The translations under genes and the position numbers were made by a program. Shown one piece after another: positions 46,237-58,800 of a stretch of 64,000 nt of DNA. The notes beneath the pieces were generated by a model. That model worked only from the letters and a program-made list of their open reading frames with translations. It was not told the origin of the DNA and searched no databases. The first letter of the stretch is position 1; each line of letters starts with the position of its first letter. The DNA comes from a virus, in IMG/VR virus record IMGVR_UViG_3300028601_000033, positions 3,219 to 67,218 of that record; one strand, 5' to 3'.

Positions 46237-47832
46237 ATGCGTGCAAGATTAATTGAATCAATCGCACAAAGACTCAAAGAAGAAATCGCACCTCAAAACC
46301 CTATCAAGTTTCTTAAGAAATTCGAGGTAGATGAATATATCGATGATGTAATATCTACAGTGTATTTGTATACAAGAGCTAAAAAGGGAAGTTCACACAA
46401 TACAATATATTTCGTAGAAGTAGCATCAGCTATAGGGCATTCTGTCAGGAATAAATTGAAGCAAAAAAGAAATTCATCTGTTGCTGTCAAAGCAGGCTCC
46501 TTCCTCTTGTATTCCTTTGAAATCCTGCAAATACTTCAAGTTGTATTAGGTCAGGGTAAAAATCATCACGCAAGTTACATTGTCCAGATGTTGGATGATG
46601 ACTGCTTACATGATTTGTGGAATAACATAGATACAGCCACAAATGAAAAATTACCCTCATTAAAACCTTATGCACCTTGGAACTCCTCTAAGCATGAAAC
46701 CGGTATATCAATTGTAAAAACCAAAAATAAAGATGTGTTAAGTATACTACATCCAGATACTCATCCATTAATATTTAATAGTTTGAATAAGTCTCAAGCT
46801 GTAGGTTGGAGAATAAATGAAGATATCTTTAACATTCACTTGTGGGCACTTCGTAACAAAACCAAAGCCTTCTCTGAAATTTGGGATTCTCAAAACCCCG
46901 AGGCTAAAACAACTAAACTGCGAGAAGCTAAAGCGATAGGTTCAATTGCTCAAAGATTTCTCAAATCTAAATTTTACCATCTGTACTATTATGATTTCAG
47001 AGGTCGTAAATACACATCAACAGCATATCTACATGAACAGGGTTCAGACCTAGCTAGAGGTTTATTACTGCGTGATGATTGCAAGCCAATCGGACCTGAG
47101 GGGTTCTTTTGCCTAATGGTGAGTATTGCTTCAAACTGGGCAGGTGATGCAGGCAGAGAAGACGGTGCAAAGACAGATAAAATACCACTGAAAGAACGAT
47201 ATTTATGGGCAATGGATAATGAAGAAATTTTATTATCCTATGCTGAATCACCGAAAATCCATCAAGGTTGGATGGACGCAGATAAGCCATGGCAATTCCT
47301 GGCTGCATGTATGGAACTAAAGAAGCTGCGAGAATGGCAATTTAAGAAAGGTGATCCAATGAATCCTTTCGAAGATTATTCTTATAAAAGTCATCTTGAG
47401 GCTTATATTGATGGGTCGAATAATGGTTCCCAACATCTGACAGCCTTAACAAGAGACGAGGTAACTGCACCTCACGTTAATCTTGTACCGCAATCACTCC
47501 CAGGTGATTTGTATAAATATATTGCAGATCATGTTTGGGAACGGTTGAATGAAACATATTCAAAACTATCAGCCACAGAAATCCAAGAGTGTAATCTATT
47601 CATTGACAAACTTGTCGATCTTAAGACAAAAATACATAACGAACCATCTGGAAGTGAGTTGCGACAAGCCCTTGTCGATGAGATTAAAATCTTAAAAGAA
47701 CAAAGTAGCCACCTAGGAGATAAACCATCAGTAGTCTTTTGGATGAAAATTGTAGATGCTAAACATAAGAGAAAAGTGGTTAAGCGTAATGTTATGACAC
47801 TCCCATATGGTGGAACTGCATATGGCTTGGGT
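46237..47832 (+). CDS. T7-like single-subunit RNA polymerase, exon 1
   Basis: DFRGRKY, DKPWQFLA, motif A IDGSNNGSQH, motif B RKVVKRNVMTLPYG. Confidence 0.92.
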
Positions 47833-48624
47833 TAATTCGGCTCAAGTAAAACTCCTCTAATTGCTGGGACATCCCTCTGGGACAATCAGCAGCGAAGCTA
47901 TACCGCCAATTAGTGTTTATCAAAGGAATATCGAAATGCCTTTTCAGAAATTTACTTTTATAGATTCTCCATCTAACATGAGTACCCGCACAATGCCTAA
48001 ATCAGGCGATTTGATCAGAAACCAACAAAATACCGGTAACTTCATCAACATCATACTTAGTGTATCATCACCTCGGAATGATGATAAGGGTATATTTGTG
48101 TATATTCGGAGTGTTAGATTTGCCAAATATAATGCTAGAGGAAAAACACCTATTACTTACCTAAAAGGCACACGATCTAGAAGTTTTAAATTTTATGTTT
48201 CAGTACCACAACAATCACATTGGCACCTAACTCGCTGTAATTGGCAATTGGTCAAACTACAAAAAGCAGTAGCTTTCAAAGAACAACGACTTTATGAGGT
48301 TATAGTTGAAGATGGTAAAGAAATTGCACGACATATAAGAACAGTCCGAAGGCCTTATGGGTTTGTAGATGTAGATAACCTAGATCAACGTATGCAAATT
48401 GTGGAAGCGTTAAAAGATGTAGATACGACATACAAGGCGCCTGAAGGCGTAAATTAATCATACACTTGGCGGTGTAGAACGTTCAACGACTATCCGTAAG
48501 GAGTACTAGGCAAGTGCCTGGGAAATGGGGAGACACTTAGGTGTAAGATATAGTCTGGTCTATATGGTAACATATAGCTGGTTTCATACCGGGGTAGAAG
48601 TAACGATTCTATCTGAACATAACG
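47833..48624 (+). mobile_element. group I intron (IA2-like) in the RNAP gene
   Basis: P1 CTTGGGT/GCTCAAG with U.G at the splice site; AATTGCTGGG/AATCAGCAG, GTTCAACGACTA, AAGATATAGTC; terminal G 48624; splicing restores YGLG|QQQI in frame. Confidence 0.92.
47936..48457 (+). CDS. intron-encoded protein of unknown family (173 aa, basic)
   Basis: AAGGA RBS; looped out of P6 (ACCGCCAA...TTGGCGGT); no GIY-YIG, HNH or LAGLIDADG motif visible. Confidence 0.7.
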   Translation: MPFQKFTFIDSPSNMSTRTMPKSGDLIRNQQNTGNFINIILSVSSPRNDDKGIFVYIRSVRFAKYNARGKTPITYLKGTRSRSFKFYVSVPQQSHWHLTRCNWQLVKLQKAVAFKEQRLYEVIVEDGKEIARHIRTVRRPYGFVDVDNLDQRMQIVEALKDVDTTYKAPEGVN

Positions 48625-49278
48625 CAGCAACAAATCAATGATGCAAAGAAACATGGTATAGATCTATTGCTTTACATGGAACATAAGTGGGGTGCATTTC
48701 TAGGAAGAGAAGTCTTTGAAGACTGTCGCATATCTTTAAAGAGACCTATGCAGTTATTGTCAATCTTTGAACAAGCAGGTAAACAAGCAGAGATTGATGG
48801 CAGGTTCTTATCTTGGATTGTACCGGTCACAGATTTTCCAGTTGTACAAAATTATGTAGAAGGAAAGATTAAGAAAGTATATGTGCAATATGGTCCTCCA
48901 AGGGGAAAAAGAAATAGTTCTGGTTATTATGACAACACACTTCAGCTCAATGTATGTTTCATCGAAGACCCGATTCCTTCCAAAAGAAAACAAGCTCAAG
49001 GAGCCAGTCCAAATGCAATCCACAGTTTAGATGCAGCGCACTTAACGATGATTGTTAATGCTTGTGATTTTCCAGTAACAACCATTCATGATTCGTTTGG
49101 ATGTTTACTAGCAGATATGCCTGTATTATTCAGGATTGTACGTGAAACATTTGTTGAGTTGTACAAGCACGACCCTTTAACGCAAATAATGAAGTACATT
49201 GGAGGTGATATCAGCGATGTAAAGTTAGGAACATTGGACTTATCTTTAGTATTAGATTCAGAATTCTGTTTTTGTTAA
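48625..49278 (+). CDS. T7-like single-subunit RNA polymerase, exon 2
   Basis: W..P...FPVVQ.Y, SPNAIHSLDAAHL, motif C IHDSF. Confidence 0.92.
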   Translation, partial: QQQINDAKKHGIDLLLYMEHKWGAFLGREVFEDCRISLKRPMQLLSIFEQAGKQAEIDGRFLSWIVPVTDFPVVQNYVEGKIKKVYVQYGPPRGKRNSSGYYDNTLQLNVCFIEDPIPSKRKQAQGASPNAIHSLDAAHLTMIVNACDFPVTTIHDSFGCLLADMPVLFRIVRETFVELYKHDPLTQIMKYIGGDISDVKLGTLDLSLVLDSEFCFC

Positions 49279-52963: not shown

Positions 52964-52974
52964 GGAGATGTTCA

Positions 52975-53286
52975 ATGCAAAAACGATTGATAAAAATTGG
53001 GGACAGTGTAGATTTCCAACCAAAATCTTCAGTGATAAGCTGTGTACCAAGTGAGTTGTATTATACACTATTGTTAGGTCGAATAAAGTTTCGGCATCCG
53101 ATTTGCGAAGATATGTATACGCATATTTTAGTGTTTCACAAACAATATCGACTCTCGTTAGGTTTTCGTTTCAAAGTCATTGTGCTAGTCGAGTCTAAAA
53201 AGGCAAATAAAATATCTCTACACAGTTACTTTAAAGATGCGACCTTGACTAAACTACTGAAGATCGTAGGGGCGCATAGTGCATAA
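52975..53286 (+). CDS. hypothetical protein
   Basis: AAGGAG RBS, 103 aa. Confidence 0.55.
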   Translation: MQKRLIKIGDSVDFQPKSSVISCVPSELYYTLLLGRIKFRHPICEDMYTHILVFHKQYRLSLGFRFKVIVLVESKKANKISLHSYFKDATLTKLLKIVGAHSA

Positions 53287-53317
53287 CATTAATAACAGCT
53301 GATTAAACGAGGTCTAA

Positions 53318-53695
53318 ATGGCAACAATCGCAATTGATTTTGATGGTACTTGTGTACGATATGCTTACCCTGAAGTAGGGGAATCTATAGGTGTTGAACC
53401 CGTATTAGAGCGATTAGTGGACGCAGGTCATCGCTTAATACTTTTAACGATGCGTACTGGTGAGCAGCTTAAAGAGGCGACGACGTGGTTTAAAGAGCGC
53501 AGTATTCCACTTTGGGGTATTAATAAAAATCCAGAACAAAAATACTGGTCTTTAAGTCCTAAAGTTTATGCAGAACTTTACATAGATGACCTTGCTTGTG
53601 GTATACCATTAATTTTAGGTGATACCGTTAAACCTTATGTAGATTGGTCTCTTGTGGAAGATTGGCTTATTGATAAAGAGTTTCTGGAGGCATAA
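53318..53695 (+). CDS. HAD-superfamily hydrolase-like protein
   Basis: IAIDFDGT, LT.R, KVYA..YIDD. Confidence 0.8.
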   Translation: MATIAIDFDGTCVRYAYPEVGESIGVEPVLERLVDAGHRLILLTMRTGEQLKEATTWFKERSIPLWGINKNPEQKYWSLSPKVYAELYIDDLACGIPLILGDTVKPYVDWSLVEDWLIDKEFLEA

Positions 53696-54529: not shown

Positions 54530-54907
54530 ATGATAAAGGCATATGTAGCAGATAAAATTTATTATTTTGAAGAAGATAATTTTATCACGTTGATTGAGAA
54601 ATTTTGCACAAGTGAGTTTAATCTAATTGGACTTGCTAGCGCTATAATCCCTAAAGATGATAAAAGAGTCAATAAGATACTCCACAAAGATCTAGAAGAA
54701 ACTTATGATCTTATATTTCAAATGAGAGGGCATAAAGTTAATCAAACTACCATGACCTTCATCGAATGTGATATTGTATTAGTTCCAAATGAACTTGGAT
54801 TCAAGCACACTGGCGAGGAGTTTAAGACTACGAAAGCGATTCTAAATGTTAAAAGTCCCCACACTGTCTACAAAGTCACTATTGAAGAAGCCCACCCCTC
54901 TCCCTAG
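54530..54907 (+). CDS. hypothetical protein
   Basis: GAGG RBS, 125 aa. Confidence 0.55.
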   Translation: MIKAYVADKIYYFEEDNFITLIEKFCTSEFNLIGLASAIIPKDDKRVNKILHKDLEETYDLIFQMRGHKVNQTTMTFIECDIVLVPNELGFKHTGEEFKTTKAILNVKSPHTVYKVTIEEAHPSP

Positions 54908-55340
54908 GTTTCAAAATGGCCATTGGCACTTTCCAGAGCAGATGGGTGACGGCGTAGGTTTCATTTATGTTATACGAGATGCTTATCTACGCCGTTTTTA
55001 TTTAGGACAAAAACGCTTTAAAGGTACAGGAAAAATAAACGGAGGTAAAGAATCTAATTGGCGTAATTATAAAACATCGTCTAAATTGATGGCTGACCTT
55101 TTTAAAGAGAGACCTTTAGATGAATTCGAGTTTATCTGTATTGAGCAATATAAGACCAAGGGATGCTTGACATATGCTGAAACATGGTCTCTGTGCTTAG
55201 TGGAAGCTCCTACTACAGTTGACTGGTACAATAAAAGACTAGAAAGGATATCTTGGAATGTAACAGAACGGATTACTGACAGGCATAAAGAGAGATTACA
55301 ACGAGTAATTTCTTGGGACATTTTTAATGAGCTATTTTAA
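54846..55340 (+). CDS. free-standing GIY-YIG-like endonuclease (start uncertain)
   Basis: GFIYVI......FYLGQK, W..Y..SS, E..., YN. Confidence 0.7.
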   Translation: MLKVPTLSTKSLLKKPTPLPRFQNGHWHFPEQMGDGVGFIYVIRDAYLRRFYLGQKRFKGTGKINGGKESNWRNYKTSSKLMADLFKERPLDEFEFICIEQYKTKGCLTYAETWSLCLVEAPTTVDWYNKRLERISWNVTERITDRHKERLQRVISWDIFNELF

Positions 55341-57973: not shown

Positions 57974-58800
57974 TAAACCTAGCGGCTTGAGCTGGTAACA
58001 GCTTTTGAATAATCTATCTAAAAACAGGGGATATCCTATCAGGACAATCCTGTGCTAACTCGTTATGAGGAGTGCAACGACTATGAGTGATAACAAAGAC
58101 GTAAGTAAGAGACTCTATTACTATTCTACCTTCGATGGATATCTAGATAATAGAGGTGAAAATCGAAACTCGAGATTATCTGTAACTATGTTAGAGAAAA
58201 ATTCAGATTATATTTACGAGGTCGCTCTTACTCTAGAAGAGGCTGATATTGGTTATATACTTTGGAGACCTGCTCTGAACAGGCATGATGGTTATGCAAG
58301 AAAACAACAAATCAGAGTTCAATCTAAAGCACATCCGAAACTCACAAAGATTCGTAAACGAATATACATAGATAATAAAAAAGTAATTGATCCACATATG
58401 TTAACGCTATTGGATGCTCAAGCATTAGCAATTATTTTTATGGCAGATGGGAGCAGAAAATCTTGTATACTCGCATCTGGGAAAGATAATCCACTTTTCA
58501 GGATACATACTAATGGTTTCAGTTATGGTGACAATTGGCTCCTGAAGAAAGCTATAAAAGAACGCTTTGATTTGGAATTCAATGTTGAGCGACAAGCTAC
58601 GGACAAGTGGGGCTTGTATCTTCGTAAAAAAGACAACGAAAAATTTGAGAGTATCATATCGCCATTTATTTTAGAGAGCTTTCGTTATAAACTCGAACGA
58701 TAGACCCCTGAAAAGGGTGATGATATAGTCTGTTCTGTATGGTAACATACAGAGATTGGCAGAAATGACCAATCCCTGCGAATGCAGAGTAACAAAAAAG
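57974..58800 (+). mobile_element. group I intron in nrdJ
   Basis: P1 CCGT/GCGG with U.G; GTGCAACGACTA and GATATAGTC core; terminal G 58800; splicing rebuilds GEP-Y(T|AT)-GLINL. Confidence 0.92.
58083..58703 (+). CDS. intron-encoded two-motif LAGLIDADG homing endonuclease
   Basis: YYYSTFDGYL and LAIIFMADGS motifs; HT.GFS. Confidence 0.85.
   Translation: MSDNKDVSKRLYYYSTFDGYLDNRGENRNSRLSVTMLEKNSDYIYEVALTLEEADIGYILWRPALNRHDGYARKQQIRVQSKAHPKLTKIRKRIYIDNKKVIDPHMLTLLDAQALAIIFMADGSRKSCILASGKDNPLFRIHTNGFSYGDNWLLKKAIKERFDLEFNVERQATDKWGLYLRKKDNEKFESIISPFILESFRYKLER

Follow-up and report, generated by a model that had tools for sequence, protein, structure and literature searches.

A putative nucleic-acid-binding protein gene, apparently of an undescribed family, in the P6 loop of a group I intron in a phage RNA polymerase gene

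The T7-type RNA polymerase (RNAP) gene of an uncultured 67-kb phage is interrupted by a 792-nt group I intron (positions 47833-48624 of the window, i.e., the whole 64,000-nt stretch of DNA that we analyzed), and the open reading frame (ORF) in the P6 loop of this intron is, judging from its sequence and those of its relatives, a real and conserved gene that appears to be functional. In phages, a group I intron is usually regarded as a ribozyme plus a homing endonuclease. The slot of the latter is occupied here by an intact and conserved protein whose family has neither a name nor a relative of solved structure and shows no nuclease features. The reading that we tentatively put first is that the ORF is a non-catalytic nucleic-acid-binding accessory cassette lodged in that slot. 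Should the protein turn out to bind DNA or RNA and leave it uncut, it would be a clear case for the view that accessory genes can be parked safely in phage introns; a DNA-cutting protein would represent a new endonuclease family and a possible sequence-specific tool. The features referred to below are the following.

46237..47832, + strand: RNAP exon 1, 532 codons, last residues TLPYGGTAYGLG (from the ORF list)
47826..47846, + strand: putative P1, exon CTTGGGT (47826-47832) with internal guide GCTCAAG (47840-47846), U.G at the splice site
47833..48624, + strand: group I intron with a td/phiKZ-like core, 792 nt (RF00028 and comparison with the phiKZ intron)
47898..47909, + strand: P6 extension stem, 5' strand, paired with 48466-48477 in the minimum-free-energy (MFE) fold
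47922..47927, + strand: ribosome-binding site (RBS) AAAGGA, 8 nt 5' of the ATG
47936..48457, + strand: intron ORF (protein P0001), 173 aa plus stop, ATG at 47936 and TAA at 48455-48457
48266..48361, + strand: ORF codons 111-142, 32 residues inserted with respect to the family profile (hmmsearch alignment)
48466..48477, + strand: P6 extension stem, 3' strand, paired with 47898-47909 in the MFE fold
48545..48555, + strand: conserved AAGATATAGTC, J8/7-P7 region of the ribozyme core (aligned to the Rfam consensus with high posterior probability)
48625..49278, + strand: RNAP exon 2, 217 codons plus stop, first residues QQQINDAKKH

The group I intron and its splice junction

The frame of exon 1 runs into a TAA at the first intron codon, the intron ends at G48624, and its exact removal leaves the same reading frame as in L008 and L009 (relatives with 86-88% identity in the RNAP exon-1 product). 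These two and a third relative, L010, carry intronless RNAP alleles that are contiguous exactly at the predicted junction GGT|CAG. The P1 pairing listed above is one that we infer from the sequence; the junction itself is confirmed by the intronless alleles.

Against Rfam RF00028 the intron scores 34.6 bits (E 1.6e-6), a value short of the gathering score (50), as the model does not extend across the ORF that interrupts it. The homologous phiKZ intron, ORF-less in P6, scores 87.6 bits. The two introns align in two blocks (88% and 72% identical), and the gap between these blocks measures 577 nt in the present intron versus 15 nt in the phiKZ intron. The conserved stretch at 48545-48555 is common to the intron of the relative L015 and to a second intron of the window, which lies in the ribonucleotide reductase gene. 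We note that the ribozyme core matches 316 phage records, 163 of them from Escherichia phages (a count at the level of records only).

The RNAP gene of this phage clade is split at at least three sites in many contigs and is among the most intron-crowded sites in these data. L015 has a different intron, with an HNH-AP2 endonuclease, 45 nt upstream of the position of the present one. The stretch analyzed here is present in one DNA sequencing run, which may be its source sample; one contig is identical, and no RNA run is listed as containing the stretch.

The intron ORF

The preliminary description of this DNA had reported an intact 173-aa ORF, basic, beta-rich and equipped with its own RBS, in the P6 loop of the intron, and all of these points were borne out. 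The ORF runs from ATG 47936 to TAA 48455-48457; a 12-bp long-range stem closes it off when all 792 nt of the intron are folded (MFE), and both this stem and the size of the insert (577 vs 15 nt) place it in P6. The 20-kDa protein has a pI of 10.0, with 28 K+R vs 16 D+E, and eight strands that cover 83 of its 173 residues, together with two short helices (DSSP on an AlphaFold2 model). The AAAGGA at 47922-47927 has counterparts elsewhere in the phage, since A-rich AAGGA-type motifs are also found 5' of the SSB gene and of the genes for a 104-aa and a 332-aa protein.

P0003, a full-length homologue with 47% identity, starts and ends at the same aligned residues as P0001, which favors ATG 47936 over an upstream in-frame TTG at 47861 (198 aa). 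The GC content of the ORF (0.364) nearly equals that of the RNAP exons (0.372), so its composition matches the phage. Sequestration of the RBS by a hairpin over the RBS and start codon was considered and rejected (z -0.85; 34 out of 200 shuffles fold at least as well).

Relatives and conservation of the protein

An exhaustive scan of 1.84 billion representatives found 43 representative proteins that match the ORF at E <= 0.001, including 7 at E <= 1e-10; most of these relatives are stand-alone genes of a size similar to the intron ORF. When P0001 was compared with a family profile of 43 relatives that was built without P0001, P0003 and P0009, it was matched end to end with 124.5 bits. P0003 and P0009 carry an insertion at the same profile position as codons 111-142 of P0001, so that there are three long members.

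Among the 43 aligned members, N38, S59, R61, G78 and R80 are invariant, and the nearly invariant columns include R28, R58, S81, R82 and T164. The columns of His, Asp, Glu, Lys and Tyr, i.e., of catalytic-type residues, all stay below 90% in these 43 sequences. A net-acidic tail follows a conserved VDTxY motif in 22 of 49 members.

Searches with the ORF against databases of known families gave little: the only Pfam match (hmmscan, E up to 10) is UBL_USP40 at E 0.16, the only PHROG match (E up to 10) is one unnamed family at E 0.43, and PADLOC and NCBIfam gave no match at E <= 0.01. The earlier statement that the protein has no homing-endonuclease signature is thus confirmed by these four scans, which returned no nuclease family, whether of the HNH, GIY-YIG, LAGLIDADG, His-Cys box, PD-(D/E)xK or EDxHD type. 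Against PDB sequences, the best E value was 0.55 for the ORF (phmmer) and 0.72 for a profile of the 43-row alignment that includes the ORF (A2). Pfam profiles of KOW and Tudor domains matched neither the ORF at E up to 10 nor any of the 43 members at E <= 0.01, and tblastn with P0001, P0004 and P0015 found no match in 50,697 GenBank phage records. In the ESM Atlas, the highest score of P0001 was 0.81, to virus clusters without a name, which serves as a lead only, and nothing was found for P0010. A small literature search found no paper on this protein family. Going by these searches, the family appears to be undescribed, restricted to uncultured phages and mostly free-standing.

Genomic distribution

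The preliminary description raised the question of whether homologues are intron-borne or free-standing. One member, P0024, is free-standing: in L002 its gene lies between those for DNA polymerase and exonuclease, in a gap whose content varies among nine relatives. The contig of P0009 probably also carries an RNAP gene split at the same site as here, the single basis being its identical size (29,478) and same source. P0025 forms a fusion with a homologue of the 139-aa gene found downstream of the RNAP gene. In P0007, the family domain is C-terminal to NUMOD4 and HNH_3 domains (PHROG 'HNH endonuclease', E 1e-14) and occupies the place that the AP2 DNA-binding domain has in the HNH endonuclease of the L015 intron. 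Among the 43 relatives only P0007 matches HNH, through this separate N-terminal domain. We note that this fusion is seen in 1 of 43 aligned sequences, that its HNH_3 match scores 18.8 bits vs a Pfam cut-off of 24.8, and that it could be a gene-calling merger of two adjoining genes.

Out of 58 RNAP loci, 38 were searched as whole viral records, and the other 20, mostly short contigs, as loci only. The family is absent from all 38 whole records, which were picked via their RNAP and of which four are at least 90% complete; two 100%-complete genomes of the clade have no family member. The gene is also absent from L008 and L009, whose records are 18% and 56% complete. Viral-contig scans with A1, P0003, P0004, P0009 and A4 returned no relative, and with P0007 only HNH-domain matches; metagenome scans with A1 and P0003 and a genome-contig scan with A4 returned none. 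P0024 in L002 is the sole relative whose locus was found. Taken over the loci and records searched, the family appears rare and patchy and occurs at several positions, and its variable placement and absence from 38/38 records mark it as a likely accessory rather than core component. The suggestion that the protein is a partner of this RNAP is disfavored if an obligate partner is meant, given its absence from L008, L009 and the two 100%-complete genomes.

Predicted fold

Two confident models were obtained (pLDDT 90.4 and 90.8), and on the strength of weak fold matches they suggest an SH3-like small beta-barrel plus a C-terminal helix. The insertion at codons 111-142 is modeled within a long two-stranded beta arm (strands 103-125 and 128-145), and this arm of the intron form (residues 103-145) holds 9 K+R. 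The models match SH3-like barrels only, including EF-P domain I (Z 5.9), the UvrD1 Tudor domain (Z 5.8), eIF5A (Z 5.7), an Spt5 KOW domain (Z 5.3) and the N-terminal barrel of Hpy99I (Z 5.1, rmsd 1.8 A over 51 residues, 8% identity). The top Z value was 5.3 with the long model and 5.9 with the short one; all are below 6, and the fold tool itself cautions that values under 8 may stem from nothing more than a shared arrangement.

Foldseek gave nothing at E <= 0.001. No nuclease catalytic domain is among the matches listed by four fold searches, Hpy99I being matched only via its non-catalytic N-terminal barrel, and absence from such a list does not exclude a fold. A MazF/Kid-like RNase fold was rejected, as it matched the long model only (Z 4.1-4.5) and was absent among the best 50 matches of the short model. 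The homodimer prediction scored 0.13 vs a mark of 0.42, which is evidence neither way.

Possible roles of the protein

According to the reading that we put first, the product would be a small basic protein with an SH3-like barrel and a C-terminal helix that binds nucleic acid, most likely DNA, and has no catalytic centre. The strong basicity and the Arg/Ser-rich conserved surface point to nucleic acid rather than a protein as the target; the conserved Arg and Ser residues could instead be structural. The stem, RBS and ORF would form a compact travelling cassette that has settled in a td/phiKZ-type group I intron, in the P6 loop where a homing endonuclease is usually found, and the RBS of the cassette would serve for translation of the protein from the RNAP pre-mRNA or the excised intron. 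Such an intron would be unable to home through the ORF protein alone and would persist because it splices cleanly; the nuclease of another element could move it in trans. Nucleic-acid binding, lack of catalysis and mode of expression are all put forward here conditionally. Counting against this reading is the fact that peripheral loops of phage group I introns, when they contain an ORF, almost always hold a gene for a homing endonuclease; and if the association suggested by P0009 is lasting, a mobility function would fit better than a hitch-hiker. The proposal of a non-mobility cargo made in the preliminary description fits best among its suggestions, in the modified form of a member of a conserved, mostly free-standing phage family, and its proposal of a new nuclease family is disfavored by the SH3-like barrel fold and by the lack of a near-invariant His, Asp, Glu, Lys or Tyr column, though it may still be true.

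In that case the protein would be the founding member of a new homing-endonuclease family that cuts or nicks the intronless RNAP allele near GGT|CAG, with a chemistry that lacks the usual His/Asp/Glu metal site or relies on residues that only the intron-borne subfamily has; the free-standing relatives would then be mobile genes similar to seg and mob. We regard this as unlikely. The ORF sits in the classical endonuclease slot, close relatives carry intronless target alleles, and a patchy family found in at least three places beside conserved genes of one module shows the habit of free-standing homing endonucleases. There is also the common insertion of the three long members, of which one is intron-borne and another probably so, and the insertion residues E116, D126 and H133 are kept between P0001 and P0003; however, three residues kept between 47%-identical sequences is what chance would give. 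Family-wide, no catalytic-type residue is conserved, a small beta-barrel is predicted, and no catalytic fold of a nuclease was among the matches listed. Moreover, the family domain of P0007 adjoins a separate HNH nuclease domain, which suggests that the family domain is not itself a nuclease. It is conceivable, and to us similarly doubtful, that the family is a new class of mobility protein without known nuclease motifs, i.e., either an unconventional homing endonuclease or a DNA-binding guard or targeting subunit. The guard or targeting subunit would colonize endonuclease slots (the P6 loop, gaps beside polymerase genes, the HNH fusion) and would decide whether an allele is cut or spared when co-infecting phages contest the RNAP site.

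A host-takeover or phage-competition factor that acts by binding a protein, and is merely parked in an intron where insertions are harmless, seems rather improbable; one example would be a Tudor/KOW-like domain that docks on the host RNAP or on the endonuclease of a rival. UvrD/PcrA Tudor and NusG/Spt5 KOW domains are among the best fold matches, and 7egs_B, a UvrD C-terminal domain solved with an E. coli RNAP lobe, was matched at Z 4.8, but likeness of this kind is generic to all SH3-like barrels. The gene would be an accessory gene of the early/replication module, and the acidic tail after VDTxY (22/49 members) could be a docking peptide. A competition role is known for the intron-encoded protein of another phage (PMC11620839). 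The Arg/Ser-rich conserved surface and the strong basicity speak for a nucleic-acid target instead.

We give a still lower probability to an RNA-binding helper of group I splicing, either a maturase or a chaperone, that would serve an intron-crowded phage clade. Barrels of the KOW, EF-P and eIF5A type often bind RNA, and they provide the best fold matches; the RNAP gene of the clade is split at at least three sites, and the ribonucleotide reductase gene of the window has its own intron. On the other hand, two 100%-complete relatives have no family member, the phiKZ and L015 introns have no such protein in the DNA examined, and L002 has a free-standing copy but no split gene in the 12,219 bases searched. 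The known group I maturases derive from LAGLIDADG endonucleases, which also counts against a splicing helper of the present kind.

It is very improbable, and already close to refuted, that the ORF is what remains of an endonuclease gene that is decaying or no longer translated. Defunct intron ORFs do exist (e.g., I-TevIII of T4; PMC2790892), but the present frame is intact and preceded by an RBS, it aligns with the family profile over the full length (124.5 bits) and agrees in start and stop with the 47%-identical P0003, and most relatives are stand-alone genes of similar size.

Comparison with known systems

The T4 td intron, a group IA-type intron in an essential gene, has the I-TevI ORF looped out from a P6 extension with its own translation signals. 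The present intron is alike in having an ORF with its own translation signals in the P6 extension and a ribozyme core that resembles such phage introns; unlike I-TevI, a GIY-YIG endonuclease, its ORF carries no GIY-YIG or other nuclease signature and appears to belong to a different fold class.

In fungal mitochondria, a group I intron of rnl houses rps3, a conserved gene that does not encode an endonuclease, in a loop. This differs from the present case in that rps3 encodes an organellar ribosomal protein of known function and not a phage protein.

With the phiKZ group the intron shares its location in a phage RNAP gene (the phiKZ intron precedes an RNAP CDS). In PhiPA3, gp210 is an HNH endonuclease that is encoded by an intron and acts in phage-phage competition (PMC11620839). 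The differences are that gp210 is an HNH endonuclease, that the phiKZ intron compared here is ORF-less in P6, and that the polymerase in the present phage is a single-subunit T7-type enzyme.

For the T4 nrdB intron, its own ORF, I-TevIII, is reported to be defunct and the intron to be moved in trans by MobE (PMC2790892). This makes nrdB a precedent for an intron with a non-cutting ORF that persists or moves via the nuclease of another element, with the difference that I-TevIII is truncated and belongs to a known endonuclease family, whereas the present ORF is full-length and represents a separate conserved family.

In Hpy99I, an SH3-like beta-barrel lies beside a beta-beta-alpha-Me nuclease (PMC2699513), which shows that barrels of this type accompany HNH-type nucleases, as in P0007. 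The match of our protein to the Hpy99I barrel is at the level of fold only, with 8% identity.

The group I intron in the RNA polymerase gene

The virus record (67,218 bp, rated 98% complete, most of it covered by the window) carries a T7-type single-subunit RNA polymerase (RNAP) gene in two pieces, separated by a 792-nt interval with an in-frame TAA at its start and a G at its end. The features are:

46237-47832, RNAP exon 1 (T7-type single-subunit RNA polymerase), in the same frame as exon 2
47936-48457 (+), intron ORF P0001, from ATG to TAA, 173 aa
48545-48555, conserved core element AAGATATAGTC of the RNAP intron
48625-49278, RNAP exon 2 (T7-type single-subunit RNA polymerase), in the same frame as exon 1

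The intron is secure on three independent checks, namely intronless alleles, alignment with phiKZ and the conserved core element. In two related viral loci, L008 and L009 (exon-1 product 88% and 86% identical to the window, DNA ~79%), the protein matches to exons 1 and 2 meet without a gap exactly at the predicted junction, and the exon matches are likewise contiguous there in L010 (56% identity). Alignment with the phiKZ intron that precedes an RNA polymerase CDS gives 88% identity over the intron's first 58 nt and 72% over its last 148 nt. The phiKZ intron scores 87.6 bits with the Rfam group I model; the RNAP intron of the window scores 34.6 bits (E 1.6e-6), short of the gathering score of 50, as the model is unable to bridge the ORF. 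For P1, the heptamer CTTGGGT that ends exon 1 could base-pair with GCTCAAG (47840-47846), with a putative U.G at the splice site. We note that in phiKZ a 36-codon CDS (PHIKZ072.1) is annotated inside the Rfam-scored group I intron (65391-65707; L066:2463-2779) between PHIKZ072 and the RNA polymerase CDS, and that the stretch of the record viewed carries no intron annotation.

When the entire intron is folded to minimum free energy, the ORF is looped out by a 12-bp stem (47898-47909 with 48466-48477), and the aligned blocks are spaced 577 nt apart vs 15 nt in phiKZ. The ORF cassette has thus been inserted into the P6 loop, where the preliminary description had placed it. The T4 td intron with I-TevI has the same architecture. 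So do the phiKZ-group RNAP introns (PMC11620839). Two further features ascribed to the ORF, its own ribosome-binding site and a basic product, also hold: AAAGGA is located 8 nt 5' of the ATG, the site type found at other genes of this phage, and the pI is 10.0. The ORF resembles the phage in composition (GC 0.364 vs 0.372 in the RNAP exons), and a hairpin over the ribosome-binding site is no more stable than chance.

An unnamed protein family

The ORF is a real gene, and the family to which it belongs has no name. When 1.84 billion representative proteins were scanned exhaustively with HMMER, 43 matched at E <= 0.001, including 7 at E <= 1e-10. P0001 scores 124.5 bits against a profile of 43 relatives that was built without P0001, P0003 and P0009. 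The nearest relative, P0003 (174 aa), aligns from end to end at 47% identity, and in both proteins the alignment starts and finishes on the same residues. Most relatives are shorter (median 134.5 aa for the 48 proteins P0003-P0050), and residues 111-142 of P0001 form a 32-residue insertion at one profile position, where P0003 and P0009 have insertions too. The relatives share the pattern GDLIRN..TG.FINIVL.VS ... IRSVRY ... G.RSRSF ... W..V.E ... L..VDT.Y, in which N38, S59, R61, G78 and R80 are invariant and R28, R58, S81, R82 and T164 nearly so; the family alignment contains no conserved acidic, His, Lys or Tyr residues. A short net-acidic tail follows the L..VDT.Y motif at the C terminus of 22 of the 49 family members and is absent from the intron-borne P0001 and from P0003.

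Searches of the ORF or the family against Pfam, PHROGs, PADLOC, NCBIfam and PDB sequences returned no match except the separate HNH domain of one relative, P0007, in keeping with the earlier remark that no homing-endonuclease motif is recognisable, and the cargo, as far as sequence comparison can place it, is outside all six known homing-endonuclease families. No relatives were found encoded in GenBank phages or, by one motif-based scan, in bacterial and archaeal genomes, and a literature search found no published account of the family.

Predicted fold

Confident AlphaFold2 models, run with the family alignment, were obtained for P0001 (pLDDT 90.4, pTM 0.81) and for the short member P0015 (pLDDT 90.8). 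In both, a small beta-barrel leads into a single helix and then an extended, conserved motif at the C terminus; P0001 also has a long arm of two strands (103-125 and 128-145), made up of its last barrel strand and the insertion. Nothing in PDB or BFVD was matched by Foldseek at E <= 0.001. An exhaustive structural aligner returned SH3-like barrels only (EF-P domain I, eIF5A, UvrD/PcrA Tudor domains, Spt5/NusG KOW domains and the Hpy99I N-terminal barrel), with best Z values (5.3 for the long model, 5.9 for the short) in the range that the tool calls common, so that our claim is limited to the fold class.

Where family members occur

Whether homologues are intron-borne or free-standing can be answered in part. 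The only relative whose DNA context was seen, P0024, is free-standing, directly 3' of the DNA polymerase gene in L002, a phage of the same clade (DNA polymerase 58% identical). Nine relatives have a collinear replication module with variable content in the polymerase-exonuclease gap, and the family is present there in L002 only. This gap holds 103-aa and 125-aa ORFs in the window (52964-53694, between the DNA polymerase and 5'-3' exonuclease genes) and the family gene plus two 74-aa ORFs in L002 (L002:3793-4596); Pfam gave no match to the gap ORFs of either. On the intron-borne side, P0009 and an RNAP C-terminal fragment that begins three residues past the junction come from the same source and from contigs of equal length (29,478 bp), which suggests that a second intron-borne copy may exist.

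Two relatives are fusions. In P0025 the family domain is joined to a homologue of the 139-aa gene found 3' of the RNAP gene in the clade (E 3e-6), and in P0007 it lies C-terminal to NUMOD4 plus HNH_3, the position that an AP2 domain takes in the L015-intron HNH endonuclease.

With the family profile, no member turned up in the retrieved parts of 58 viral loci bearing an RNAP gene, nor in any of the 38 of these records searched whole (four at least 90% complete), and the same query recovered the L002 copy. This absence indicates that the gene is accessory and rare. The earlier suggestion of an RNAP partner is unlikely to hold in the obligate sense, because close relatives and complete relatives do without the gene.

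As for other genes, 54846-55340 encodes a 164-aa product whose GIY-YIG domain is of SegE type (E 1.2e-13). It is found at the same position in 9/9 relatives compared (47-78% identity), the behaviour of a core rather than a mobile gene. Judged by RNAP exon 2, roseophages DSS3_VP1 and DSS3_PM1 are the nearest cultured phages, with only ~35% identity.

An intron hot spot

Within this phage clade the RNAP gene is a hot spot for introns. In L015, with 94% identity to the window in the exon-2 product, a different group I intron (L015:715-1419; Rfam 81.8 bits) lies 45 nt upstream of the window's insertion site, between ...KIVKR and NVMTLPYGG, with a 157-aa HNH_3 plus AP2 endonuclease ORF 3' of the ribozyme core match. 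Among proteins of 119-380 aa there are 244 RNAP C-terminal fragments (E <= 1e-20), and start positions were classified for 120 of them, some of which may be contig ends: 49 of these 120 start within -10 to +25 residues of the window's junction (several opening with the predicted translation of the conserved intron 3' end), ~40 at or near the L015-type site (TLPYGG), and 13 at a third site (SNNGSQH) 140-144 residues upstream. A near-identical tract spans the insertion sites in two loci:

L008:2609-3215, near-identical tract spanning the intron insertion sites
L009:10321-10927, the corresponding tract

Over these ~600 nt (about -276 to +330 around the sites) most 60-nt windows are 100% identical between L008 and L009 and none falls below 92%, compared with 72-93% in the rest of the RNAP gene; the tract may be a recent gene conversion left by intron gain or loss.

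Possible roles of the intron ORF

P0001 behaves like a mobile accessory gene encoding a conserved basic small-barrel protein, whose function we infer. The reading we favour, tentatively, is a non-catalytic nucleic-acid binder: the conserved residues of the family would be of the type seen in phosphate-backbone binders. P0001 could then serve for targeting or protection, as a module akin to those that HNH enzymes use or, alternatively, be a simple hitch-hiker in a harmless site. Hpy99I has an SH3-fold barrel beside its beta-beta-alpha-Me nuclease, and the barrel makes no contact to the recognised bases (PMC2699513); T4 I-TevIII/MobE shows a route by which an intron can persist though it lacks a working nuclease (PMC2790892).

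The main rival, a new endonuclease family, draws support from the endonuclease slot that the ORF occupies, from the family's hopping distribution and from P0009, if that is indeed a second intron-borne copy, but we think it unlikely, as a pattern without conserved acidic, His, Lys or Tyr residues is hard to reconcile with any metal-dependent nuclease. A protein-binding takeover or competition factor is a rather slim prospect, and a splicing helper seems improbable. An untranslated or decaying remnant is nearly excluded.

Elsewhere in the window, a 212-aa LAGLIDADG_2 endonuclease ORF (58065-58703; E 4.2e-21) lies between two ribonucleotide reductase gene pieces, near a conserved GATATAGTC...GGTAACATA element that is the same as in the RNAP intron; the ribonucleotide reductase gene holds a second intron with a classical endonuclease.
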